Part shown: positions 26,457 to 56,027 of the stretch, one piece after another | How positions within the stretch are numbered: the first letter of the stretch is position 1 | Layout of the letters: the number at the start of each line of letters is the position of its first letter | Source of the DNA: a virus | Taxonomy: Duplodnaviria; Caudoviricetes | Virus record (IMG/VR): IMGVR_UViG_3300037258_000287 | Coordinates: 1 to 56,027 of that record | DNA length: 56,027 nucleotides | Strand: one strand, 5' to 3' | Program-made: the position numbers and the translations under genes | Notes under the pieces: generated by a model | The model's input: the letters and a program-made list of their open reading frames with translations, nothing else | The model's database searches: none | Told to the model about the DNA's origin: nothing

Positions 26457-26499
26457 CCGCCGGCCGTAAATGAAACGCTCATCCCGACTAAGGGAGCAG

Positions 26500-27150
26500 A
26501 TGGACAAGCAGCTCACCGCCGCAATCTACGCCCGCGTCTCGACCAAAGACAAAGGGCAGGACACCGAGAACCAACTCTCGCAGCTCCGGAAGTATGCCGC
26601 GAAACAGGAATGGGAGACCGTCGAGTTTATCGACCATGCCAGCGGAAAGCATGCGGACCGCGACGGCCTCACCAAACTCTTCGAAGCAGCGAGCCGGCGG
26701 GAGATCGATGTGGTGTTGGTTTGGGCTCTTGACCGTTTCACCCGGCAGGGCATCTTTGAGACGTTCGAACACATCGCCAAGCTCTCAAAGTATGGCGTGA
26801 GCTTCGAGAGTTTGACTGAGCCTCAGTTCCGGACCACCGGCGCCACTGGGGAGCTGATGCTGGCGATTGCAGCCTGGATCGCGAAGCAGGAACGCATCCG
26901 GATCAGCGAGCGCACCAAGGCCGGCCTGGCTACCGCACGGGCTAAGGGAAAGATTCTCGGCCGTCCGCGGATAGTGTTCCGCATCGACCTCGCCGAACAG
27001 ATGCGCGCCGCGGGCAAGAGTTGGCGGGCTATCTCTCGAGAACTCGGCATCCCCCACGCGACTATCCGGAAAGCACTTTCGGAGCGGAAAGCATCCCTAA
27101 AACCCGCGAAAAGGGGTGTGCAGAAAACCCCATCGAAACCCCGCCGCTAA
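26500..27150 (+). CDS. Small serine recombinase (resolvase/invertase)
   Basis: YARVST catalytic Ser, LDRFTR, ERIRISERTKAGL...G..LGRP, C-terminal HTH; alternative start 26470. Confidence 0.93.
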   Translation: MDKQLTAAIYARVSTKDKGQDTENQLSQLRKYAAKQEWETVEFIDHASGKHADRDGLTKLFEAASRREIDVVLVWALDRFTRQGIFETFEHIAKLSKYGVSFESLTEPQFRTTGATGELMLAIAAWIAKQERIRISERTKAGLATARAKGKILGRPRIVFRIDLAEQMRAAGKSWRAISRELGIPHATIRKALSERKASLKPAKRGVQKTPSKPRR

Positions 27151-28287: not shown

Positions 28288-29259
28288 ATGCAATTCGAGC
28301 AACTGCTGAGCGATTTTCAAGAGGCCTACATGCCGCGCCTGGCCGCGCCGACCCGAGCGAAGTACACCTCACTCATCCGGCAACACATCAGGCCCAAGTT
28401 CGCGGATATGGAAGTCGATGCCATCACCACCAAAGTGCTCGACATCTGGCTGAACAGTAAGAACGATCGGCTATCGTGGGCAGCCCGCGCCGACTTGCGC
28501 AACCTCATGTCGTCGATCTTCACCCGGGCGGAAAAGTACGGGACATGGGAAGGCAAGAATCCGGCGCGATATGCCAACCCCGGCCGGCGGGCGCCGAAAT
28601 ATGAGCACTGCAAGCTGACGGTAGAGCAGACGAAGACGCTACTCGCTCACCTGCCCGACGATGTCCGGCTCATCTGTATGGTGGCGCTGTTCTCCGGGCT
28701 GCGAATGAGTGAAGTGATGGGCTTGTGCTGGAAGCATGTGGACTTCTCGCGTGGCCTCTTTCTCATCCGGCAGCGCTACTGGCGCGGAGACATCGGACCC
28801 ACCAAGTCCGAGACATCGGCGCGCGATATTCCATTCGGCGACTTGCGGGAACTGCTGCTGGCGTTGAAACCCGAGGGCAACGTAGACGAGCGCTTCTGTT
28901 TCTCGGTCGAGACGCACGGTTTCGGAGCCGGCCGCGGCGGAGCTTACCGCGAGACCGGACAGACGCGCGATGATCGCTCAATTCACCAGCACTTCCTGCG
29001 TCCCGCGGCGGAAAAGCTGAACATTTATCGCAAAGGCTTTGGCTTTCATGCGTTCAGACGTGAAGCAATCACGGCCGTAGACGAAATATTGGGCTCAATT
29101 CAGGCAATGAAGTTCGCAGGGCACAGTAGTTTAAACGTCACCAGCCGCTACGGGCTCAAAGATCATGCCAAACAGGATCAGGCAGTTAGAAAACTCCAGA
29201 AACCGTATTCGTCTTTGCTTCGCCCTCGAACGAAAAATGTTACTACCAAGCCGAAGTGA
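28288..29259 (+). CDS. int: Tyrosine integrase
   Basis: SGLRMSE (R), TKS (K), HAFRR, GH and SRY catalytic residues; adjacent attP. Confidence 0.93.
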   Translation: MQFEQLLSDFQEAYMPRLAAPTRAKYTSLIRQHIRPKFADMEVDAITTKVLDIWLNSKNDRLSWAARADLRNLMSSIFTRAEKYGTWEGKNPARYANPGRRAPKYEHCKLTVEQTKTLLAHLPDDVRLICMVALFSGLRMSEVMGLCWKHVDFSRGLFLIRQRYWRGDIGPTKSETSARDIPFGDLRELLLALKPEGNVDERFCFSVETHGFGAGRGGAYRETGQTRDDRSIHQHFLRPAAEKLNIYRKGFGFHAFRREAITAVDEILGSIQAMKFAGHSSLNVTSRYGLKDHAKQDQAVRKLQKPYSSLLRPRTKNVTTKPK

Positions 29260-36381: not shown

Positions 36382-37011
36382 ATGAAAGCACAGGAAGTCT
36401 ACGAAGGGAGCGACGGCAAGGTGACGACACTGTACTATGCCCACCTTATCCAGCGCGGCGGGGAACTGGGAACCGTTGCGATGAATCTGTTTCGCGCGCA
36501 GAAGTGCAGCGCACGCGCGAAAGTCTACCGTGGCGGCATTCGTGGGCGCGGCTCATTCAAAAGCATGGCGTACGAGCGGAAGTCCTGGTCTATGGGGTTG
36601 CTGTGCGATGCGCTCGCCACAAACGCGGAAACGCTGGGCATCGCCTGGGGATGGAAAGAAGATCCTCACACGCCATTCGGCAACGAGCCCTCGTGGGTGC
36701 TGTACGTTGAGTTGCCCGAGGGCATGCCGGCCTACACCAAAGACGGGAATAAGATGTTCAGTAACACCCATTTCAAGACCGAAAACGAGGCGTGGAACTC
36801 GATCCTTCGCAGCGTCGAGGCCTTCATCAGCCTGTCCGCGTCTTCACTCATCAGGGCGCGGGCGGATCTACAAAAGGCCGAGAAATACGCGGCGGATGCC
36901 GTTGTCGAGTACATGACAGCAAAAAGGAATTACGAAAGGCGCATGGCTGAGCTGATCAACGGTCCTACCGCCCCGCCCCCAGCTCCCATGCCAACAGATC
37001 GTCAGGAGTAA
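36382..37011 (+). CDS. Hypothetical protein, possibly chimeric
   Basis: GGAG RBS; NLFRAQKCSARAKVYRGG...WGWKED...WVLYVELP domain. Confidence 0.6.
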   Translation: MKAQEVYEGSDGKVTTLYYAHLIQRGGELGTVAMNLFRAQKCSARAKVYRGGIRGRGSFKSMAYERKSWSMGLLCDALATNAETLGIAWGWKEDPHTPFGNEPSWVLYVELPEGMPAYTKDGNKMFSNTHFKTENEAWNSILRSVEAFISLSASSLIRARADLQKAEKYAADAVVEYMTAKRNYERRMAELINGPTAPPPAPMPTDRQE

Positions 37012-37198
37012 CCCGCAGCGCAAGGCAAAGCTGCACCATCAGCGCCACAGACAATCCCGGCGCTTGCCCTCCTTCAATGACGCCGATATAAGACCGGGCA
37101 ACTCCACACTCAGCAGCAAGCTTACGCTGCGTCATCTGCAGTTCTGCCCGGCGCATCACGATCCTGCGCCCCAAACGGTTGAGCACAGCTTGTCCCAT
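36965..37198 (-). CDS. XRE-family HTH regulator
   Basis: LGRRIVMRRAELQMTQRKLAAECGVARSYIGVIEGG...VTPDDLL. Confidence 0.85.
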   Translation of the reverse strand: MGQAVLNRLGRRIVMRRAELQMTQRKLAAECGVARSYIGVIEGGQAPGLSVALMVQLCLALRVTPDDLLAWELGAGR

Positions 37199-37284
37199 GA
37201 CTGACGGCCTCCCAGAGCGGTTAAATGCCATTGTCAGAGCGCAGCCCCTTGCGTTATTAGACTTGGCACACCACAATCGTATCA

Positions 37285-37803
37285 ATGCGGACCACTTCAG
37301 CGGTAATACGTAGTCAGATTGCCGTTCTTTTTGCCGATATTGTGCCTGCGATAGCCCGCAGCATAATGCGAAACCTTCCCAGGTCCTTCGAGCGGGAAGA
37401 TTTGGAGCAGGTGGGCAGGCTGGCGTTGCTCGAAGCCGCGCCGCGGATCGAAGCCTTTGCCCGGAAACGGGTCGAGGGAGCCATGCGGGATAGCGCACGG
37501 TTTCAGAGGTACCGGGAGACGCAGCACGCGAGCTTGTCCGGCTTAAAAAAACAGCCGTCTGTTTTAATAGACAGCCGGACACCCCTGGAAATTTTAATCG
37601 ACGATGAAAAGCAGGCCGGCCTGCAGGCCCACATCTGTTCGCTACCTGCGGACCAGGCGCGCGTCATCTCAGAGCGCATGTCAGGCCGCAAGAGGCAAAA
37701 GGGCAGACCATCCCGTGCCGAAGCAGCAGCTCGGGCGGCCGACATCGCGATAGAAGGCGAGGCTGTGGGTGCGCTGAGGGTTTTGCTGGCGCGGGCGGCA
37801 TAG
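37285..37803 (+). CDS. Degenerate sigma70-like factor (FliA-like region 2)
   Basis: IARSIMRNLPRSFEREDLEQVGRLALLEAA...FARKRVEGAMRD; region-4-like LPADQARVI. Confidence 0.65.
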   Translation: MRTTSAVIRSQIAVLFADIVPAIARSIMRNLPRSFEREDLEQVGRLALLEAAPRIEAFARKRVEGAMRDSARFQRYRETQHASLSGLKKQPSVLIDSRTPLEILIDDEKQAGLQAHICSLPADQARVISERMSGRKRQKGRPSRAEAAARAADIAIEGEAVGALRVLLARAA

Positions 37804-38207: not shown

Positions 38208-38450
38208 TCGATGACTGTAATCATGTGGATCTGCGGAAAATGCCGCGTCACGAACACAGGCGAACGCTGCCCGAAATGCAGACTGTGACCGCAAAGGCGG
38301 GCTGATGATCCCGACGATTGAGGCGATGGACCCGGAGTTTGAAGCCGCGAAACAGAGGCTGCGAGAATACGTGAAGGCCTATCCCGATCAGGCCATGATC
38401 GCTATTTACGGCCTGTACCTCTAAACTGTATTTCGCGCGATAATCGCAGC

Positions 38451-38837
38451 ATGAACCGCCGCGCCTTCTTCGTTGCCACCCTATCCGCCATCTTTGGAAG
38501 GAAGCGTTTCACGGCGTGGCTCAGAACCCGCGGCGCCGACTACTATTCCATCCGGTGGCCTGTGCATGCCCGCAGTTGGGAATTTGGCGTCCATTGCCAA
38601 GAGGCGCTGAACCATTACATGCCGTTTTCGCAAGCCTTCCTGACGAACATTGCGATGCCAATCACCGAAGTGACTGAGGTGCGGATTGATGGCATGCGCC
38701 TCGAACCGGGCCAGTTTTCGGAATCACCCGGCAGGGTGCTCGCCTTTCCCGCGGCAGCAGCGTCGGACGATGTGAGCATCAGCTACAGCTACGGCCCGAT
38801 TCCCGCGGGTTACGGCAAGACGCCGCGCGCTGCATGA
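38451..38837 (+). CDS. Twin-arginine-leader chimera of capsid C-terminus and neck/tube-like segments
   Basis: MNRRAFF leader; 13/38 ungapped identities to MCP C-terminus; further matches to adaptor and tube. Confidence 0.75.
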   Translation: MNRRAFFVATLSAIFGRKRFTAWLRTRGADYYSIRWPVHARSWEFGVHCQEALNHYMPFSQAFLTNIAMPITEVTEVRIDGMRLEPGQFSESPGRVLAFPAAAASDDVSISYSYGPIPAGYGKTPRAA

Positions 38838-39034
38838 CCCGGCGCGGCTTCCTCACCCTACCCCTAGCGGCAAAGGCCCAACAGCAGGCAGACGCCGAAA
38901 AGATTGCCGAGATGGAGGCGGCACTTAAGTTCCTGTGGGACGGCTACCACGTGCAACCCACGGCCATCTACACCCCTGAAGGCCGCATCACCAAAGACGG
39001 TATCGATCCGTGGGGCACGTTTCCCGAGCCTTAA
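38834..39034 (+). CDS. Twin-arginine-leader mini-protein carrying a capsid helix
   Basis: MTRRGFL leader; 11/23 ungapped identities to MCP IVEWDAALKYFWDTYKTGIDRIY. Confidence 0.78.
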   Translation: MTRRGFLTLPLAAKAQQQADAEKIAEMEAALKFLWDGYHVQPTAIYTPEGRITKDGIDPWGTFPEP

Positions 39035-39055
39035 AAACGCGCGATAATCTCGGCT

Positions 39056-39406
39056 GTGCTCAAGGTTGGAAAGTGCGCAAAGTGTCACGGGCTGATGCCG
39101 CTCACGACCCATCACATCATTCCGCGGTCCAAAGGCGGGAAGGGCCTTCCGAATAATACCGTTCTGGTATGTCGCCCCTGCCACGACGAGCTAGATATCG
39201 AAGCTGGCGTGCGGCAGATCCGCAAGGGACCTAAGATGCCCGGCCTTCCTCGGCGGCGGATGCAGTGCCATTCCTGCAATAACACTATCCGAAAGGACGA
39301 ATGGCGAAATGGTCATAGGCTTTGCAGGCCGTGTCAGTGGAAGAAAGAGCGCGCAACATGGGACCGGCTCAAACAGATGCTCGTTGAGGCAGAAGAGCGG
39401 CTCTGA
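39056..39406 (+). CDS. HNH endonuclease
   Basis: CAKC...HHIIPRSKGG...N...VCRPCH plus a second Zn finger. Confidence 0.85.
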   Translation: MLKVGKCAKCHGLMPLTTHHIIPRSKGGKGLPNNTVLVCRPCHDELDIEAGVRQIRKGPKMPGLPRRRMQCHSCNNTIRKDEWRNGHRLCRPCQWKKERATWDRLKQMLVEAEERL

Positions 39407-41102: not shown

Positions 41103-41373
41103 GCGTGCGGATCGAAGCGCTAAAAATAACGCGGGTGGTGAGCATATCGGCTCAGTCCTTGACCGAGGAACACGAGTATTTTCCCGGATGCACCGCTGTG
41201 CTGATAGAGGACGGAAAGATGTGGACGCTGAACTCCCGACGCGAGAAAACCTACTCACGGCCACTGGAAGGACTGCGCGGAATTTCTCTTTGCGCAGTGG
41301 AATATCAGGGCTGGGCACCCGGTTCAGAGCACGGCAAAGTCAGGACAGTCGACGCGGCGGAAAGGTGGCTCGA

Positions 41374-41748
41374 TTGAACCGCATCCAGCTAACCCGGCGG
41401 GAAGTCGACATGATCCAAGGCGTGCTCGACGGCAAATGCAACAAGGACATCGCCACAGCCTGCGGCATCACCGAGAACACAGCGAAGGTCTACCTATCTC
41501 GCCTCTTCGGAAAAGTGGGTGCGCGATCGCGCTGGGAGCTGATGGAATGGGGCCGCGCATGGGCTGAGGCTGAGCGCCGCGTGCAGGCCCAATACCGCGA
41601 GCTGCATCCCGATGCCCTGGAGACTATCCCTACGTTGCAGATCCGCGAGGTTACGGAGTTCGAAGTCATCAAAGCTCTGATCCAAAAGACCGTACTCGGT
41701 ACCGAGCAGCGCGCCGAACTGGCAGTCTCGCTCTTGAGGGACGCGTAG
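41374..41748 (+). CDS. LuxR-type HTH regulator
   Basis: LTRREVDMIQGVLDGKCNKDIATACGITENTAKVYLSRLFGKVGARSR; TTG start. Confidence 0.85.
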   Translation: MNRIQLTRREVDMIQGVLDGKCNKDIATACGITENTAKVYLSRLFGKVGARSRWELMEWGRAWAEAERRVQAQYRELHPDALETIPTLQIREVTEFEVIKALIQKTVLGTEQRAELAVSLLRDA

Positions 41749-44808: not shown

Positions 44809-45444
44809 GTGGAATTTCTCTGGACCGCGCAGCGCGAGGAAGCTGCCCTGCTTGTCGCTCAAGACGAGCTTACCGACGAGCAGATTGCCAAGCGAGTGGG
44901 CGTCACCCGCAACGGCGCAGTAGCGCGATGGAAAGCTACCCCGGCATTCCGCGTCCGCGTCAATGAGCACGTACGGGAATGGGCGCAGAGGTTCCGCGAA
45001 GAGGGGCTATGCGTCAAAGAGCGGCGCGTCAGATCGCTCGTCGATGATTTCGCGGCCACTGAATTAATACTCTCCGAACGCGGTGAGCAGCTTGCGGACT
45101 TCGGGGGGGGATGCTCGACAGGCTTCATCTGCCGCGACTACAAGGGGAAAGACGCAACCCAGGAAGTCTTCTTCTTCGACGCTGCCCTAATGCGAGAGCG
45201 CCGGGCTATCCGGGAGCAGATTGCCCAGGAACTGGGCGACGTCGTCACCAAGCACGAACACACCGGCAAGAACGGTGCGCCGATCGACGTAACAGTAAAT
45301 GCCAGGGAGTTGCTCACTAGCCGAATCGCTAGCATCGCTGAGCGAAGAGGAACGGGACGAAGCGATATCCAGCCTGACGGACGAACAGGCGGCGAGGATT
45401 CTGTACGACTGGCGGGGGACGTTCGCCCGGCAGAACCAGCTTGA
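44809..45444 (+). CDS. terS: Terminase small subunit
   Basis: N-terminal HTH (LTDEQIAKRVGVTR...W); KHEHTGKNGAPI motif; overlaps terL by 146 bp. Confidence 0.8.
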   Translation: MEFLWTAQREEAALLVAQDELTDEQIAKRVGVTRNGAVARWKATPAFRVRVNEHVREWAQRFREEGLCVKERRVRSLVDDFAATELILSERGEQLADFGGGCSTGFICRDYKGKDATQEVFFFDAALMRERRAIREQIAQELGDVVTKHEHTGKNGAPIDVTVNARELLTSRIASIAERRGTGRSDIQPDGRTGGEDSVRLAGDVRPAEPA

Positions 45445-46636
45445 GCCTCCGGGAGACTGGCGCAACTGGCTGATTCTCGCGGGCCGAGGGTTCGGTAAAA
45501 CTCGCACCGGCGCCGAATTTGTTCGTGAGCAAGTAGAGCTACGTAAGGCCCGGCGAATCGCGTTCATCGGCCACACCGTAGCCGACGTCCGAAAAGTGAT
45601 GATCGAGGGGGAAAGCGGGCTGCTCGCCTGCTACCCCCCGGGAGAGGGTCCGGTCTACAAGCCTTCGGAACGATCGGTCGAGTGGTCAAACGGAGCAATC
45701 GGGACGACGTACTCGGGCGATTCTCCAGACCAGCTCCGTGGCCCGCAGCACGATCTCTACTGGTGCGACGAGCCTGCAAAGTTCGCCTATCTCCAGGACT
45801 GCTGGGATAACCTGCAGTTCGGCCTGAGACTGGGGAACGCTCCCCGCGGCGTCCTGACCACGACACCCAAGCCTCTGGCGCTCATTCGCCAGCTCGTGAG
45901 GGATCAGCCGGCCACGGTCGTTACCCGCGGCTCGACGTACGACAATGCGTCGAATCTGCCGGCGGCAACCTTAGCTGAGTTCCGCAAGAAATATGAGGGA
46001 ACGCGGCTCGGCAGGCAAGAGCTGTTTGCCGAGATTCTCGACGACGCTCCGGGCGCACTGTGGAAACGGCAATCGTTTGATGGCCACCGCGTCAAGGAAG
46101 CGCCGGAACTAACGCGAGTTGTGGTGGCGGTCGACCCGGCGGTTACCGACACCGAGCACTCGGACGAAAGCGGAATAGTGGCGGCCGGCCGCGGCATCGA
46201 TGGCCACGCGTACATCCTTGACGACTGGTCGCTTAGATCGTCGCCGGGCGAGTGGGCGAAAAAAGCGATCGAGCTTTACAAGCATCGCCGCGCCGATATC
46301 ATCATCGCCGAAGTGAACAAGGGCGGCGACTTGGTCATCTCGACCATTCGGGTGGTAGACCCTAACGCCCCGGTGCGGAAGACGCGGGCCACTCAGGGCA
46401 AAGTGCTGAGAGCTGAACCGGTCGCGGCTCTCTATGAGCAAGGCCGCGTGCACCACGTCGGGAACTTCGACGCTCTCGAAGATCAGATGTGCATGTTCAC
46501 TACGGGAGCATATGTGGGGCCGGGCTCTCCGGACCGCGCGGACGCTGCGGTATATGCGATTACGGATTTGATTTTGGACGCGCCTGGCGAGGGGCTACTC
46601 GAATACTACAGGCGCATGAACGAAAAGAAAGACTGA
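45299..46636 (+). CDS. terL: Terminase large subunit
   Basis: Walker A AGRGFGKT, Walker B YWCDE, TTTP motif, nuclease VAVDP...SPDRADA. Confidence 0.96.
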   Translation: MPGSCSLAESLASLSEEERDEAISSLTDEQAARILYDWRGTFARQNQLEPPGDWRNWLILAGRGFGKTRTGAEFVREQVELRKARRIAFIGHTVADVRKVMIEGESGLLACYPPGEGPVYKPSERSVEWSNGAIGTTYSGDSPDQLRGPQHDLYWCDEPAKFAYLQDCWDNLQFGLRLGNAPRGVLTTTPKPLALIRQLVRDQPATVVTRGSTYDNASNLPAATLAEFRKKYEGTRLGRQELFAEILDDAPGALWKRQSFDGHRVKEAPELTRVVVAVDPAVTDTEHSDESGIVAAGRGIDGHAYILDDWSLRSSPGEWAKKAIELYKHRRADIIIAEVNKGGDLVISTIRVVDPNAPVRKTRATQGKVLRAEPVAALYEQGRVHHVGNFDALEDQMCMFTTGAYVGPGSPDRADAAVYAITDLILDAPGEGLLEYYRRMNEKKD

Positions 46637-47699: not shown

Positions 47700-47795
47700 G
47701 CCGGCTGGCCAGCATCGACCGTTCAGGCGATATGCGCCGGCGTTCCCCGCTATTTCCGTCGATGCTGGATCCGCGATTCCCCGTTGCGTAGACCA

Positions 47796-49274
47796 ATGTT
47801 CGCCGATCTCCTACATAAAGCGCTCGCCCTTCCCTCTGGCGGCACGGAAAGTCCCATCGATCCGGGATCGGTGCAACTCCGGGTCGGGGCAACGGTCCGG
47901 GACTGGATTGCCAGCGTAAAGCCTGATGCCTGGTTTGGACCGAACCAGCCCTACCGTCCCGAAGCGCCGAAGTCGACACTCCCGCGAGTTTTCGATTATC
48001 CGTTCGGCGCCAACCTCTTTTATCAGCCCCGCAGCGAGCAGAAGGGGCCATCGTTCGAGCAGCTCCGAAACCTGTCGTACAACTACGACGTTCTCCGGTC
48101 TTGCATCGAGCGGCGTAAGCAGCCCATCCTCGCTCGCGAGCTGATCTTCAAGGTAAAGAAGAAGCCGGGCGAAAAGAAACGCGATTTCCGGGAGCGGTCG
48201 GACAACGATCCGCGCGTCGCGTACCTGACGGAGTTCTTCAAGTCGCCGGACAGAGAGCACGATTTTCAGGCGTGGCTCTGGATGGTTCTCGAAGAGTTGC
48301 TGGTCACCGACGCGCTGGCAATCTGGCCAGTCCGCGTGCAAGGCCAGGTGCAGGCTCTAAAGCTGATCGACGGAGCCACGATCAAGCCTTTGCACACGAC
48401 GGAAGGTTGGCGCCCTGTTCCTCCGGACCCCGCTTATCAACAGATCGTCAAGGGCATGCCGGCTCTCGACATGACGACGGACCAGCTCCTCTACATGCCG
48501 AGGAACTGCAGGGTAAACCGGTTCTATGGCTACCCGCCGGTAGAGCAGTTGATCATCACCACGAACACGGCGATCAACCGGCAAATTTCCCAACTGTGCT
48601 GGTACACCGAGGGCAACGTCCCCGAAGCGCTGGTGCAAGTGCCGGACACCTGGACTCCCGACCAGATTGAGCGCATGCAGACGCAGTTCGACGGCATGCT
48701 CGCCGGCAACCTCGCCGCAAAGCGCCGCATCACATTCGTGCCCGGGGGCGGCAAGGTCGACTTCGTTCGAGAGAAAGTCCTCACCGGCGATACGGACGTC
48801 TGGCTATCGCGCATCACCTGCGCCATTCTCGGAGTCAGCCCGCAGCCCTTCACCGAGCGCATGAACCGCGCGACGGGCGAACAGGCGGCGGCAACCGAGA
48901 CAGAGAAAGCGGACGCCCCCACGCTCAAGTGGATCAGGAATCGTATCACTGCGATTGTCCAGGGGCCGATGGGCTTCAAGGATATCGAGGCAGCATGGGA
49001 CTCGGACGAAGACTCCGACCGTCTCAAGCAGGCGCAGATCGAAGATATCCAGATCCGTAACGGATCGCGCTCGGTAGACGAATCGCGGGAAGACGATGGG
49101 CTCGACGCTGCAGGAATCGGGCCGTACTACGCAACAGCTACCGGGCCGATCTTCTTTTCAGATATCGACGCCGGCCGGCAGGCAGGCCTGCAGAATTCCC
49201 AGCTCCAGCCGGGCAACCAGCGCCAATTACCGGCGCCACAGAAACAAGACGAGGAAGAGGAAGTTACCGCATGA
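47796..49274 (+). CDS. Portal protein
   Basis: LIDGATIKP, AYQQIVKG, YGYPPVEQ, YTEGNVP motifs; position. Confidence 0.92.
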   Translation: MFADLLHKALALPSGGTESPIDPGSVQLRVGATVRDWIASVKPDAWFGPNQPYRPEAPKSTLPRVFDYPFGANLFYQPRSEQKGPSFEQLRNLSYNYDVLRSCIERRKQPILARELIFKVKKKPGEKKRDFRERSDNDPRVAYLTEFFKSPDREHDFQAWLWMVLEELLVTDALAIWPVRVQGQVQALKLIDGATIKPLHTTEGWRPVPPDPAYQQIVKGMPALDMTTDQLLYMPRNCRVNRFYGYPPVEQLIITTNTAINRQISQLCWYTEGNVPEALVQVPDTWTPDQIERMQTQFDGMLAGNLAAKRRITFVPGGGKVDFVREKVLTGDTDVWLSRITCAILGVSPQPFTERMNRATGEQAAATETEKADAPTLKWIRNRITAIVQGPMGFKDIEAAWDSDEDSDRLKQAQIEDIQIRNGSRSVDESREDDGLDAAGIGPYYATATGPIFFSDIDAGRQAGLQNSQLQPGNQRQLPAPQKQDEEEEVTA

Positions 49275-49837: not shown

Positions 49838-51754
49838 ATGGCAAAGTTCAAACGATTCGCCCCTATCACGAAGGTCGACGCCGAAAAGCGCGAAGTGTGG
49901 GGCATCCTCGCCGAAGAAGCGGTCGATAAATCGAATGAGATTTTCGACTACGACAAATCGAAGCCCTACTTTCAGAAGTGGAACGGTGAGTTTCAAAAGC
50001 TGACCTGTCAGCTTGATGAGCCGAGCCTCGGTAACCTGCGCGAGATGCACGGCAAGACGGCGGCCGGCAAGTTCACCGCCATGCAGTACGACGATACGGA
50101 CAAATGCATCAGCGTCTGCGCAAAGGTCGTCGACGATGCCGCATGGAAGAAGGTAGCCGAGGGCGTCTACACCGGATTCTCGATCGGTGGCGACTACGTC
50201 GAAACGTTTGCGGACCCGGTCATCAAAGGAGCCAAGCGCTACGTCGCCAACCCTCGCGAAGGGTCACTCGTCGACAATCCGTGCATGTACGGCGCAACCT
50301 TTGAAGTCAGGAAGGCGGACGGCGAGACCGAACTGCGGAAGTTCGTCGGGACCGATCAACTCGCCAAGCTCACCGCCCAGGTGTCCCGTCTGCAGAAGAC
50401 TGTCGAGGGCGCGCTACGGAAAGACGCCAAGACCAAGAAAGTCGCCGGGCACGATCTCCCGGCCAGCGCCTTCCTTATTGTCGGAGACCCGGATAAAACG
50501 GACACCTGGAATCTGCCCGTCGACTTCCCAACCGAGGAAGAATCGAAATCGCACGTGCAGAACGCCATGGCGCGGTTCAACCAGACCGAAGGGCACTCTC
50601 CGGAGGTTGCCAAAAAGCTCATCGCGCACGCCAAGAAACTCGGCATCGACTGCTCGAACTTCGCCGAAGAGTACGTGAAGGCAGCGTTCCCGAACGCCCT
50701 AGCGAAACGCGCAGCCGAGAACAAACTACAGAAAAGCATGTGGGACGTCGGACGCCTCGCGGACGCCCTCTGCACGCTGGCCTGGATGGAGCAGGGTCTC
50801 TCGGACGAAGCGGTCTACGAAGACGACGATTCACCCATTCCCGCCAAGCTCCGCGAACTGCTGCTTCCTCTCCGCCAGATCCTGCTCGACCTGGTCGCAG
50901 AAGAATCGGCCGAGTTGCTGCGTATCGAGGAAGCCAAAGCGGAAGCCGGCAAAGCGGCCGGCGCCGACCAAACCCTAAACAAACGAAAGGAGGTGGTCCC
51001 AATGACCACTCAATCACTTCAGAAGAGCCTGGAAGCAGGCACAGCAACGCCCGAGGAAGTCAAAAAAGCTGCCTCCCTGATCAAGAAACAAGCCTCCCAC
51101 ATCGAAAAGCTCGAAAAGGCCCATGAGAAGATGTCCGACGCCCACGACAAGATGGGCGAGCACATCGAGGGCATGAAAGACTGCATGGGCATGTCGAAAG
51201 CCGCGGACGGCGACCACATGAAGGGCCACATGCAGGGTCTCGCCAAGAACCATGTGACCCTCGGCGACTCGATGGACGACGCGGCCGGTTACCTCGAAGA
51301 CATGAAGGAAGAAGCCGAGAGCGTCGACGACCAGGGCACGCAAGGTCCGGCAAAGTTCGCCGTGGCGCGCCTCGAAAAGCGGCTGAAGCGCGAACACGCA
51401 CGGGAAATCGCGAAGCTCCAGGAAGGGCAGAACGATCTCACTAAACTGCTCACCAAGTTCATCGAGGTGCAGACTGGAATCGCCGATCCTCCCGCCCGCA
51501 CGCCGGCGCGCACCGCCGTAACGGTCGAGAAGACGGCGGACGGAGGCACCGGTGTCGGCGCCATCATTACACCCGGCGCTGGAGCCCCCGCGGCGGCTGC
51601 TGCTACCGAGCTAAATAAGTTCGTCGACGCGTCCGGCATGCCGAATCCCGACTTTGTCGACACCCCCGAAGCCCGCGGCACAGCCTTCGCCAAGGCAGCG
51701 AAAGCGATCCCGATGGAACGTGGGAACCCCTTCCCCAGCAACAAGGCCGCCTAG
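49838..51754 (+). CDS. Prohead protease fused to scaffold
   Basis: GNLREMH, GVYTGFSIGG, EGSLVDNP motifs; coiled-coil C-terminus; internal start at 51002. Confidence 0.85.
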   Translation: MAKFKRFAPITKVDAEKREVWGILAEEAVDKSNEIFDYDKSKPYFQKWNGEFQKLTCQLDEPSLGNLREMHGKTAAGKFTAMQYDDTDKCISVCAKVVDDAAWKKVAEGVYTGFSIGGDYVETFADPVIKGAKRYVANPREGSLVDNPCMYGATFEVRKADGETELRKFVGTDQLAKLTAQVSRLQKTVEGALRKDAKTKKVAGHDLPASAFLIVGDPDKTDTWNLPVDFPTEEESKSHVQNAMARFNQTEGHSPEVAKKLIAHAKKLGIDCSNFAEEYVKAAFPNALAKRAAENKLQKSMWDVGRLADALCTLAWMEQGLSDEAVYEDDDSPIPAKLRELLLPLRQILLDLVAEESAELLRIEEAKAEAGKAAGADQTLNKRKEVVPMTTQSLQKSLEAGTATPEEVKKAASLIKKQASHIEKLEKAHEKMSDAHDKMGEHIEGMKDCMGMSKAADGDHMKGHMQGLAKNHVTLGDSMDDAAGYLEDMKEEAESVDDQGTQGPAKFAVARLEKRLKREHAREIAKLQEGQNDLTKLLTKFIEVQTGIADPPARTPARTAVTVEKTADGGTGVGAIITPGAGAPAAAAATELNKFVDASGMPNPDFVDTPEARGTAFAKAAKAIPMERGNPFPSNKAA

Positions 51755-51831: not shown

Positions 51832-51865
51832 ATTGGCCGCGGCAAACCAGGAGAACACCACCCCC

Positions 51866-53350
51866 ATGCACGATCTCATTCAGCAAACACTCGAACGCCT
51901 CAACCAGGTGACTGGGCTTGCCAAGGCCGGTATCACCACCGGAACCGGGCTGGTCTACTACGACCTCGAAGCCGAGGCCAAACGTCAGTACCCTGTCATC
52001 GCCCCCATCCGGAAACGCATGCCGCGTATCGGAAAAAAGGAGGCCGGACAAGGCCTCGCGGTCCACTGGAACTACATCTCAAACCCCAACACTCAGGGCG
52101 TCCTCGCTATGGTTGGGCAGGGGCAGCGCGGCGGCCAGATCACTCCCACGGTGGTCTCGAAGCTCGCAACCTACGTAGGGATCGGCCTCGAAAACGTGGT
52201 GACGTGGGAAGCCGAGTACGCAGGCGAAGGGTACGACGACATTCGCGCCCAGGCGCAGCGCATGACGCTCGACTCGCTCATCCTCGCCGAAGAGCCGCAG
52301 CTCCTGTGGGGCAACGCCTCTCTTTCCTTTGGCACTACCCCGACCCCGGCCGGCACGCAAGCCACGGTGACCGGCGGATCACTCGCGAACGGAACCTATT
52401 ACCTCTATTGCGTGGCGCTCACCCTGCAGGGCTACAATTACGCGCTGCTACAGAGCCCCGTCGCAGTCGTCCCCGTCGTGACCCGCACCAACGCGGGCGT
52501 CAATTCCACCACCACCATCAACGGAGGAGTGGCGCAGATCTCCGCGGCATCGACCGGAGTCACCACCACCGGCTCGAACAACGCCATCAACGCGACCGTT
52601 ACGGCCGTCAAAGGCGCGGCCGGCTATGCCTGGTTCGTCGGATCTTCCGCCGGCGCCGGCAATGCCTTCCTGTACGCCGTCACCAGCCTGAACCTCGTGA
52701 CTATCCTCTCGCAGCCCGTCACCGGCCAGCTCGCAAACTACGCAGGGTCGACCACCGACTACAGCGCCAACCCGCTGGCCTTCGATGGCCTCGTCACTCA
52801 GCTCTGCGAAGCGAATGGCTATTTCAATTCGCTGAACGGCGCGACCATGACGCCCGATGGCGCAAACGGCATCGTCGAGTGGGACGCAGCTCTCAAGTAT
52901 TTCTGGGACACCTACAAGACCGGCATCGACCGCATTTATTGCGGCTCCCAGATCATCCGCGACGCGACTCGCGCCGTAGCCACCGGCTCGGGCAATGCGG
53001 CCATGCGCATCAACCTGCAGAACGACACCGATTCGCTCGGCAATCTGACCGGCTCCATGCGGCTTGCGTCGTACACCAACAAATTCGCTTACAACGGCGC
53101 GATGGATATTCCGATCGAAATCCATCCGAACATGCCGGACGGGCACGTTTTCTTCGATCTCGAGAAAAACCCCTATCCGACCGCCGATATCCCGCTCGCC
53201 CGCGCCGTCCGGACCCGCCGCGATTACTTCATGGTGGTGTGGCCGATCGTCGATCGCACCTGGCAGAACGGGTGCTACGCCGACGAAGTGCTGCAGGTCT
53301 ACGTGCCGTACGGCATGGGCCTGATCTCTAACATCGGACCCGGCATCTAA
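51866..53350 (+). CDS. Major capsid protein with internal beta-sandwich insertion
   Basis: AGGAG RBS; YYDLEAEAK..YPV..PIRKRMPRI, EEPQLLWGN and FDGL motifs; position after scaffold. Confidence 0.9.
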   Translation: MHDLIQQTLERLNQVTGLAKAGITTGTGLVYYDLEAEAKRQYPVIAPIRKRMPRIGKKEAGQGLAVHWNYISNPNTQGVLAMVGQGQRGGQITPTVVSKLATYVGIGLENVVTWEAEYAGEGYDDIRAQAQRMTLDSLILAEEPQLLWGNASLSFGTTPTPAGTQATVTGGSLANGTYYLYCVALTLQGYNYALLQSPVAVVPVVTRTNAGVNSTTTINGGVAQISAASTGVTTTGSNNAINATVTAVKGAAGYAWFVGSSAGAGNAFLYAVTSLNLVTILSQPVTGQLANYAGSTTDYSANPLAFDGLVTQLCEANGYFNSLNGATMTPDGANGIVEWDAALKYFWDTYKTGIDRIYCGSQIIRDATRAVATGSGNAAMRINLQNDTDSLGNLTGSMRLASYTNKFAYNGAMDIPIEIHPNMPDGHVFFDLEKNPYPTADIPLARAVRTRRDYFMVVWPIVDRTWQNGCYADEVLQVYVPYGMGLISNIGPGI

Positions 53351-53497: not shown

Positions 53498-54418
53498 ATG
53501 GCCTCTCCTGTCATCGCGAACTTTACGCCTGCTTCCGCCGTTGCAGGCGGAGCGGGCTTTACCCTGACAATAAACGGGCAGAATTTTGACAGTGCAGCGG
53601 CGGTGTACTGGGGTTCAACCGCCCTTACAACGACCTTCGTAAATTCGGGGCAGCTCACCGCGGCAGTCACTTCCGGACTCATCGCCAATCCCGGCGTGGT
53701 GCAGCTCACGGTGCTGTCTCTCGGGATCGTTTCCGGAACTGGGGGCGCGCCCTCCATCTTCGCTATTCCCTCGCCTCCGAACGCGATAGACCTTGCAACG
53801 CTCTCTCAGGTGAAGGGCTACCTGTACACGGTCCAGGGGACACCGGCGGATGACTACGTTTTACAGTGGCTCACCACGTCGGCAAGCCAGTATCTGCTGA
53901 GCCAGACGCACCGGGCGTCGCTGAACTCGGTTTCGACGCAGACCGAGCCCTACAACGGCACCGGACAGCCTCAGATCACAACCCGCGAGTTTCCCATCAC
54001 CGCGGTGCAGTCGGTAGTGATCAACGGATATAGCGTGCCGGCGACCCCGACGACAGGGCCGCAAGCATACTTGCAACCCGGCTGGGCGATCGGCTTGAAT
54101 GGCACCAGCATCGTGCTATCGAGCGGCGGCACTGGATCCTGGTACCCCGGCTATGGCGTGCCCTCGGTATTCCCGCGGGGCATCCTGAACGTGGTCATCA
54201 GCTATTCGGCGGGCTACGACGGGATTCCCTTCGATATCAACGAAGCCTGCGTGCAGTTGATTGGGCAGAACTACAAACGCCGCGGGTGGATCGACGAAGC
54301 ATCACGGGCGTTCGCAGCCGGCGGCGGCCAGACCACCTATCGCAACTGGGACGCGCCAACACAAGTCCGCAAGGTGATCAACGATTACTCGCGACGCTGG
54401 GGCGCGGGTGGCGCGTAG
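53498..54418 (+). CDS. Head-tail adaptor with N-terminal IPT/TIG domain
   Basis: PVIANFTPASAVAGGAGFTLTINGQNF...TTFVNSGQLTA, then DLATLSQVKGYL...ISYSAGYDGIPFDINEAC. Confidence 0.82.
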   Translation: MASPVIANFTPASAVAGGAGFTLTINGQNFDSAAAVYWGSTALTTTFVNSGQLTAAVTSGLIANPGVVQLTVLSLGIVSGTGGAPSIFAIPSPPNAIDLATLSQVKGYLYTVQGTPADDYVLQWLTTSASQYLLSQTHRASLNSVSTQTEPYNGTGQPQITTREFPITAVQSVVINGYSVPATPTTGPQAYLQPGWAIGLNGTSIVLSSGGTGSWYPGYGVPSVFPRGILNVVISYSAGYDGIPFDINEACVQLIGQNYKRRGWIDEASRAFAAGGGQTTYRNWDAPTQVRKVINDYSRRWGAGGA

Positions 54419-55542: not shown

Positions 55543-56027
55543 ATGGCCGCACCCACCACCGGCGGAACGCCCTATATTCAATTCGGCAGCGCGCTGCTGT
55601 ACCTCAATCCGAACGGGGGAAACCTCGCGACGAACCCGACCCCGACCAAACCCTACACGATCCAGAATTTCGAGGTCGACCAGTCGGGAGACCTGAAGGA
55701 CCTGCGCGGGCAGAGCCAGTATCCCGACGACACGGCCCGCTCCGACATCAAGTCCAGCTTCAAATTCTCTATCGGACGCACGGATTACTTCCTCCTGAAC
55801 CAGAACGTGTGGGCGGACACCACTGTGTCAGGGGGCACCTCAATTTCTCCCAACGAGGCGCACACTGTGCCTGCGTCTTCGGTCTATACCGTCACGATCA
55901 CGCCTCCTGCTTCCGGCGTCTTTGTCGCTGACCTCGGGGTAACGTACGCGGGCCTCGGAGACCTCGAAAAGGTGAATAGCGTGACGGCCGCCGGGCAGTA
56001 TAGCGTCAACGCCTCAACCGGCGTCTA
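55543..56027 (+). CDS. Tail tube protein, 5' part (continues at 1..440)
   Basis: AGGAG RBS; IQFGSALLY...DLKDLRGQSQYPDD; open to window end. Confidence 0.8.
   Translation, partial: MAAPTTGGTPYIQFGSALLYLNPNGGNLATNPTPTKPYTIQNFEVDQSGDLKDLRGQSQYPDDTARSDIKSSFKFSIGRTDYFLLNQNVWADTTVSGGTSISPNEAHTVPASSVYTVTITPPASGVFVADLGVTYAGLGDLEKVNSVTAAGQYSVNASTGV

Follow-up and report, generated by a model that had tools for sequence, protein, structure and literature searches.

A 66-residue phage protein that carries a predicted capsid-derived helix–loop–strand segment and its coupled upstream partner

P0002, a 66-residue open reading frame of a temperate phage from soil, appears to be a real protein-coding gene of the rare, accessory kind, and the helix–loop–strand of its core descends from the major capsid protein (MCP) of the phage's own HK97-fold family. 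Together with two relatives, P0004 and P0129, it would make up a new phage protein family of capsid origin, with very few members. A tentative role can be proposed, with a probability of roughly 40%, according to which P0002 is a cytoplasmic mimic of an MCP element, encoded by a real accessory gene coupled to its upstream neighbour P0003, and modulates capsid assembly.

The window, that is, the whole stretch of 56,027 bases that was analysed, is an entire IMG/VR record bounded by direct terminal repeats and rated 100% complete. It derives from a soil metagenome, and short identical pieces of the phage were found also in a second soil study. The presence of an integrase, a serine recombinase and a repressor-like gene (Table 1) identifies the phage as temperate. 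P0003 and P0002 belong to the early rightward operon, where they occupy a variable slot adjoining the immunity region. Directly upstream of P0003 lies a 39-aa ORF (38305-38424) that matched no family and whose log-odds of 0.52 is the highest coding signal in the region. Two further observations concern the ends of the record: one gene spans them (55543-56025 and 3-440), and an identical peptide is read from the terminal repeat at 55963-56025 and 63-125. In the head module, the portion of the 638-aa protein that follows its protease-like residues is probably a fused scaffold.

Table 1. Positions of the features discussed, numbered from the first base of the window.
Feature	Positions	Strand	Remarks
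Serine recombinase	26470-27150		
Tyrosine integrase	28288-29259		
Repressor-like HTH gene	36965-37582	-	
Sigma-factor-like gene, early region	37285-37803		Weak Sigma70_r2 match, E 0.007
Direct repeat, copy 1	38434..38450	+	CGCGCGATAATC + 5 nt; ends at P0003 start codon
P0003	38451..38837	+	128 aa, upstream partner; starts MNRRAFF
MCP C-terminal hairpin segment in P0003, aa 24-67	38520..38651	+	Family HMM; phrog_13692, E 3.5e-8
P0002	38834..39034	+	66 aa; stop codon included
P0002 N-terminal extension, aa 1-21	38834..38896	+	TRRGFL, then 9 uncharged residues, then AKA
P0002 MCP-derived segment, aa 21-49 (helix, loop, strand)	38894..38980	+	MCP-family HMM positions 331-359
P0002 conserved non-MCP-like tail, aa 48-60	38975..39013	+	PEGxxTKDGxxxW; shared with P0129
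Direct repeat, copy 2	39038..39054	+	Just past P0002 stop, just before HNH start
HNH endonuclease gene	39056..39406	+	Pfam HNH, E 3.9e-9
Sigma-factor-like gene, early region	41188-41748		phrog_3282 sigma factor match, E 6.3e-7
TerS	44809-45444	+	
TerL	45299-46636	+	
Portal	47784-49274	+	
Protease–scaffold fusion (scaffold part probable)	49838-51754	+	638 aa; first ~164 residues match head-maturation protease
Major capsid protein, HK97 fold	51833..53350	+	Probable start ATG 51866
MCP segment matched by P0002	52862..52948	+	Model helix 337-350, strand 356-359
MCP segment matched by P0003	53207..53335	+	Model strands 446-458, 465-478, 485-488
Head-tail adaptor	53498-54418	+	

An earlier note on this DNA, made from the letters alone, had singled out P0002 as a Tat-leader peptide carrying a single capsid helix. 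The ORF itself is real and its translation is exactly the one quoted there, and its ATG indeed lies on the TGA of P0003, forming an ATGA overlap. The codon usage of P0002 is the phage's own. When log-odds were trained on 14 confident genes, whose range was 0.15-0.60, P0002 scored 0.44 per codon (0.50 in the core and 0.42 in the leader), within that range and above every one of the 192 wrong-frame ORFs of 50-130 codons that served as a control (mean -0.35, maximum 0.25). The two frames that overlap P0002 gave -0.18 and -0.45, and its GC3 is 0.73; the corresponding log-odds for P0003 is 0.20. It is this codon usage, together with the existence of a homologue, P0129, which shares also the part of P0002 that does not resemble the MCP, that leads to the view of P0002 as a real and rare accessory gene.

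The identity of the resident MCP was established from its match to phrog_13692 (E 9.9e-94), its 24-28% identity with annotated major capsid proteins of Arthrobacter phages and an AlphaFold model (pLDDT 86.9) for which Foldseek returned the SPO1, SU10 and HK97 capsids with probability 1.00. In this model, whose residues are counted from the ATG at 51866, the spine helix and the later helices of the HK97 fold are separated by a beta-rich insertion of some 140 residues (approximately 160-300). The stretch resembling P0002 comes after this insertion and before a second helix (361-373), and the order of the elements suggests that, of the two A-domain helices in the HK97 fold, helix 337-350 is the first. 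The stretch resembling P0003 comprises the long hairpin formed by strands 446-458 and 465-478 plus the last strand.

The comparison over 23 residues between P0002 and the resident MCP on which the earlier note was based holds when repeated by eye, with 11/23 identities. BLASTP aligned the two proteins with 12/26 identities and a pairwise E of 5e-5, and in a tblastn search of the MCP against the whole window P0002 was matched at E 0.087, ranking below several low-complexity matches. Taken alone, this pairwise match would be borderline. With a profile of the MCP family it becomes significant. This profile was built from 119 of the 120 best MCP homologues listed, one partial protein of 401 aa being left out, and it was run against the 3673 stop-to-stop frames of at least 25 aa present in this phage (G0), in a 24.7-kb fragment of a close relative (G1) and in an 86-kb relative (G2, or G002). 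Besides the three MCPs, exactly four frames were matched at E below 0.01, and the next-best one had an E of 0.25. P0002 was aligned to profile positions 331-359 of 491 (E 7.6e-5) and P0003, which the earlier note had also taken to carry an MCP piece, to positions 446-489 (E 3e-12); the other two frames belong to G2 and are P0004, a helix piece (E 2e-4), and P0126, a C-terminal piece (E 1.6e-4). With two such matches per phage, each of the two MCP segments thus has a small ORF of its own in this phage and in G2 alike. The family profile, P0004 and P0129 make the likeness of P0002 to the capsid protein solid, and it is more than chance.

The description of this likeness as a single capsid helix was half right: a segment derived from the MCP is present, but it covers the helix plus the strand that follows it. 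P0002 retains the helix positions that are at least 90% conserved across the 119 MCPs (E, L, the invariant W and D). It had also been suggested that the segment be compared with the MCPs of other phages, and it does prove modestly closer to some of them, with 14/23 identities to several distant members against the 11/23 to the resident MCP and a median of 10/23 over the 119 MCPs; over residues 11-52, P0002 is 40% identical to the MCP in locus L135. Similarly, the identity of the piece in P0003 is 46.7% with the C-terminus of the MCP in two Brevundimonas phages and 36% with that of the resident MCP. Because both segments are closer to other MCPs than to the resident one, the pieces are old or foreign and did not arise by recent copying of the resident gene. 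They are as diverged from every MCP as MCPs are from one another, and their frames are still open. As the identity of P0002 to its own MCP (11/23) is set against a median of 10/23, there is no sign that the resident capsid has escaped P0002.

When compared with the phrog_13692 MCPs (those of the Brevundimonas phages Strzyga and Polewnik and of the Arthrobacter phages Sonali and Mufasa8), residues 21-49 of P0002 correspond to the helix–strand 337-359 and residues 24-67 of P0003 are homologous to the C-terminal hairpin, yet the two small proteins keep only about 30-45 of some 500 residues. P0002 lacks the N-arm, the E-loop, the spine helix and the A-domain sheet; the full HK97 MCP fold is absent, the HMM aligning with the 29 positions given above and with no others of the 491, and phrog_13692 itself gives no match to P0002. 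P0002 does not belong to phrog_13692 and is unable to build a capsid subunit. The AlphaFold model of P0002 (pLDDT 70.3 overall, 75-82 over residues 21-60 and below 50 for residues 1-7) consists of one helix, residues 9-37, followed by three short strands, so that the predicted order of helix and then strand is the same as in the MCP model; the PEGxxTKDGxxxW tail is predicted as two short strands. Foldseek found 0 matches to this model in BFVD at E 0.001, and the ESM Atlas gave no usable feature match for P0002 or P0003.

Relatives of P0002 are few. A HMMER scan of 1.84 billion representatives yielded four proteins including P0002 itself, and the only credible homologue among them was P0129, a 53-aa metagenomic protein (E 7.5e-4). 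P0129 starts three residues ahead of the aligned core and is identical to P0002 at 17 of 39 positions over residues 22-60 (pairwise E 1e-13), the tail PEGxxTKDGxxxW included. The other two matches, P0127 and P0128, are proteins in which LPYLWNG units are repeated, and they were judged spurious. An absence of homologues in related phages had been named beforehand as evidence that would count against the gene; such a homologue was found in P0004, which shares with P0002 11/22 identities (E 4e-7) and a VQP motif that is absent from MCPs. The core E-AAL-x-[FY]-[LF]-W-x-x-Y-x-V-x-P is present throughout the family and the tail in two of its three members, which are mutually as diverged as MCPs are; this tail is specific to the small-protein family and unrelated to the MCP.

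Further searches did not enlarge the family. Word-seeded searches of 5.8 billion clusters returned only the query itself, both for P0002 (1/1 candidate) and for P0004 (1/8 candidates), and tblastn of P0002 against 50,697 phage records gave only a chance-level match (E 0.8) in a 298-aa Caulobacter phage protein. A DNA pattern for the VQP motif retrieved only the known relative in viral contigs and nothing (0) in metagenome contigs. A second pattern, W..Y.V.P...Y.PEG, pointed to one doubtful 110-aa ORF in L129; its five planctomycete matches all belong to one unrelated enzyme family of about 430 aa and were discarded. Viral scans with P0129 found none, and one with the P0002+P0129 alignment found only an MCP, that of L135. 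A match to P0003 in L003 was likewise rejected, being short, placed inside a giant fibre-like protein and a product of the search pattern itself. A narrow search of the full-text literature found no description of small ORFs made of capsid fragments or of Tat-led capsid pieces.

The label of Tat leader was not borne out for P0002. The leader MTRRGFLTLPLAAKAQ is present as written in the earlier note, and it contains the Tat core S/T-R-R-x-F-L (T2-R3-R4-G5-F6-L7), so that P0002 shares with the Tat signal peptides of TIGR01409 and PF10518 the residues T-R-R-G-F-L at positions 2-7 and possibly an AKA site: the AKA at residues 13-15 could be a putative cleavage site. The caution expressed there about a short hydrophobic region was nevertheless well placed, since GFLTLPLAA provides only nine uncharged residues before K14, where Tat signals have about 12 or more, and the whole signal would total 15 residues; for this reason, P0002 was excluded from the leader scan. 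TIGR01409 and PF10518 gave no match to P0002 or P0003 at E up to 10, the leader is absent from P0129 and P0004 (the N-terminus of the latter being unrelated), and the predicted helix 9-37 runs uninterrupted through the supposed cleavage site. The export of P0002 itself is thus graded as unlikely, with a small though real chance.

These data bear on a wider proposal, in which the RR leader would send both P0002 and P0003 to the Tat system or the membrane, there to serve in lysogenic conversion or superinfection exclusion, their capsid origin being merely historical. Such a destination would agree with the Tat core and the possible cleavage site of P0002, with the start of P0003, where MNRRAFF is followed by 12 uncharged residues, and with P0126, which, if started at its ATG, has an RR motif (SRRGFLGVLGAAAAATYL) and scores just under the TIGR01409 cut-off (16.2 vs 16.7) and below that of PF10518 (18.3 vs 22.7). 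The location points in the same direction: in lambdoid phages, genes for lysogenic conversion and superinfection exclusion typically lie beside the immunity region, as this pair does, and in a sister contig this slot includes a gene for a 240-aa protein that bears a Sec-type signal. Against it stand the nine-residue hydrophobic region, the lack of Tat-model matches, the leaderless P0129 and P0004 and the continuous helix. Moreover, 66 codons ahead of the RR motif the frame of P0126 offers a GTG start that follows a GAGGAG, and this start would make the motif internal. Outside the cytoplasm, there is no evident target for a piece of capsid. Envelope targeting is therefore viewed as an improbable explanation that still deserves some weight. 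The TRRGFL extension would rather be a lineage-specific add-on, for which a weakly membrane-affine or neutral character is likelier than a working Tat signal.

The surroundings of the pair raise a different question, namely whether P0003 and P0002 might be functionless, scrambled leftovers of a foreign head module, brought with or beside the HNH gene. The two genes are directly upstream of this endonuclease gene, which looks foreign because of its codon log-odds of -0.08, atypical for the phage, and they are flanked by a direct repeat. The 12-nt CGCGCGATAATC has only two exact copies in the window (88% identity between the full 17-nt repeats), and each of them ends 5-6 nt ahead of a start codon, that of P0003 or that of the HNH gene. 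The GATAAT within the repeat occupies positions -12 to -7 from the P0003 ATG and could be the -10 box of a leaderless transcript or, equally, a recombination joint. No Shine-Dalgarno sequence precedes P0003 or P0002, a further point for the debris interpretation, and no sigma-70-like promoter or terminator was found within the cassette. A -1 frameshift joining P0003 to P0002 was considered and dropped, as inspection by eye of 38690-38837 revealed no slippery heptamer. Debris would also account for the absence of the pair from the closest sister contig and for the reversed order of the two pieces with respect to the MCP, and the literature describes homing-endonuclease genes as clustering near capsid and other essential genes, where they mark the boundaries of exchange (PMC10448857).

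Several observations are difficult to reconcile with debris. P0002 has the codon usage of the phage and surpasses any wrong-frame ORF, and P0129 conserves the part that is not MCP-like too. The pieces are as diverged as MCPs, yet their frames remain open and the conserved residues of the family are kept. Both ORF types are intact in G2, whose record contains no relative of this HNH gene; nor was any relative of it detected in the 80 loci flanking MCP genes (0/80), in G1, in 29 TerL loci or, at E 1e-5, in 50,697 phage records. Debris of this kind is consequently held to be unlikely, without being negligible.

The portion of P0003 beyond its MCP piece gave no significant relatives: tblastn matches to genes annotated as head-tail adaptors had E values of at least 1, the comparison with DUF2460 an E of 0.19 and phmmer E values of at least 0.18, the Atlas neighbours were non-significant and the pLDDT of its model was 0.44. 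A complex prediction for P0003 (21-128) with P0002 (17-66), run without controls, gave no answer (score 0.00).

The distribution of these genes is patchy. Among 20 further viral records with this MCP family, extra MCP pieces of the P0002 or P0003 type were found in G2 only; the remaining 19 records, four of them at least 90% complete, have none. One record has an additional match of an unrelated kind, a short one to MCP positions 26-53, right where its contig ends (G013:C1:33361-33444); it may represent a second MCP-like gene truncated there. The closest relative reached is a 58-kb metagenome contig (80% identity in TerL and 86% in the MCP) that is syntenic on both sides of the slot. There, between the sigma-like gene and the homologue of a 217-aa ORF, different and unrelated genes are found (L100 3680-5040), a 206-aa ORF and the 240-aa ORF with the Sec-type signal mentioned above, and HNH, P0003 and P0002 are all missing. 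The MCP profile matched MCP genes alone among 5730 frames of the 29 TerL-flanking loci. In G2, P0004 and P0126 lie 15 kb apart in the late region, the former adjoining a head-morphogenesis gene and the latter about 3.3 kb downstream of the MCP gene. Taken with the distribution, these differing contexts characterize the P0002- and P0003-like genes as patchy, movable accessory genes. A large ORF beside P0004 (L008 3-1097, minus strand), similar to RNA ligases and 2H phosphoesterases (phrog_755, E 1.2e-7), belongs to a stretch of roughly 9.6 kb that separates portal from protease there and is missing from this phage.

The tentatively preferred reading, that of P0002 as a cytoplasmic mimic of an MCP element, would operate as follows. 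P0002 would be translated by coupling to P0003, the bearer of the MCP C-terminal hairpin, and would remain in the cytoplasm, where its core (residues 22-60) may form a small alpha-plus-beta unit composed of the MCP-descended helix–loop–strand and the family-specific tail. By mimicking the MCP element, it could bind the MCP subunits of this capsid family, or a partner of the MCP, and thereby modulate or block capsid assembly, possibly that of competing related phages. Mimicry acting on assembly is the mode of action that we infer, being the simplest functional reading of a protein that keeps the conserved residues of the helix and whose partner copies another MCP element. Weighing against it are the size of the family, with three members only, the 19 of 20 other records of the MCP family that lack such pieces and the different genomic contexts of the genes in the two phages; a purely cytoplasmic location also fails to account for the recurrence of the RR-x-F motif in P0003 and P0126. 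A more elaborate version, in which P0003 and P0002 would make up a two-gene "capsid-mimic" cassette, each protein being built from highly conserved MCP pieces, that poisons or redirects capsid assembly in competing phages with related MCPs, with the RR motif holding the pieces at the membrane or translocon, is regarded as quite improbable.

Lastly, the MCP-like pieces might serve as decoys that occupy capsid-recognising sensors of host defence and thereby blunt abortive infection. Short MCP segments can be sensed by the host, as in the case of the T4 Gol peptide with Lit, and the segments copied here count among the best-conserved of the MCP family. A mimic of the trigger would, however, be expected to trigger the sensor; in addition, the genes are absent from most phages of the MCP family, PADLOC 2.0 assigned 0 families to P0002, P0003, P0004, P0126 and P0129 at E up to 0.1, and the cassette proteins matched no known anti-defence family. 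A decoy is accordingly rated as very improbable.

The mimicry proposed for P0002 has a parallel in SaPI1 CpmB, which mimics the C-terminal helix of the helper phage scaffolding protein and in this way engages the capsid protein. Both are small proteins with a helix homologous to that of a morphogenetic protein, with the difference that CpmB copies a scaffold and belongs to a satellite, whereas P0002 copies the MCP and belongs to the phage itself. A second parallel is offered by small prophage proteins that block virion (tail) assembly of invading phages and are paired with a second gene (PMC10884400, PMC11364771). The Tab/anti-Tab and Tai/Ati systems described there resemble P0003/P0002 in being small accessory genes of temperate elements, arranged as a two-gene unit and with assembly as the proposed target; the two-gene layout of P0003/P0002 and their place beside the immunity region both bring these systems to mind. 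Tab and Tai act on tail assembly, whereas P0002 would act on the capsid, and their abstracts do not describe them as pieces of structural proteins, unlike P0002 and P0003. PADLOC found no sequence relation of the cassette to systems of the Tab/Tai type.

Small phage ORFs are often functionally obscure, and in P0002 and P0003 the origin can be read, as pieces of a capsid protein; in-frame, conserved pieces of this protein live on as separate genes in at least two phages. A practical lesson is that an RR-x-F-L start is insufficient for calling a Tat signal. If mimicry is true, these small proteins would form a new class, either weapons of one phage against another or regulators of assembly, and would offer a ready peptide with which to probe an interface of the HK97 fold, and if the two-gene capsid-mimic cassette is true, it would be the capsid counterpart of the tail-assembly blockers Tab and Tai. 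Should these proteins be inert, they would provide a clean example of fragments of a structural gene seeding new phage genes.
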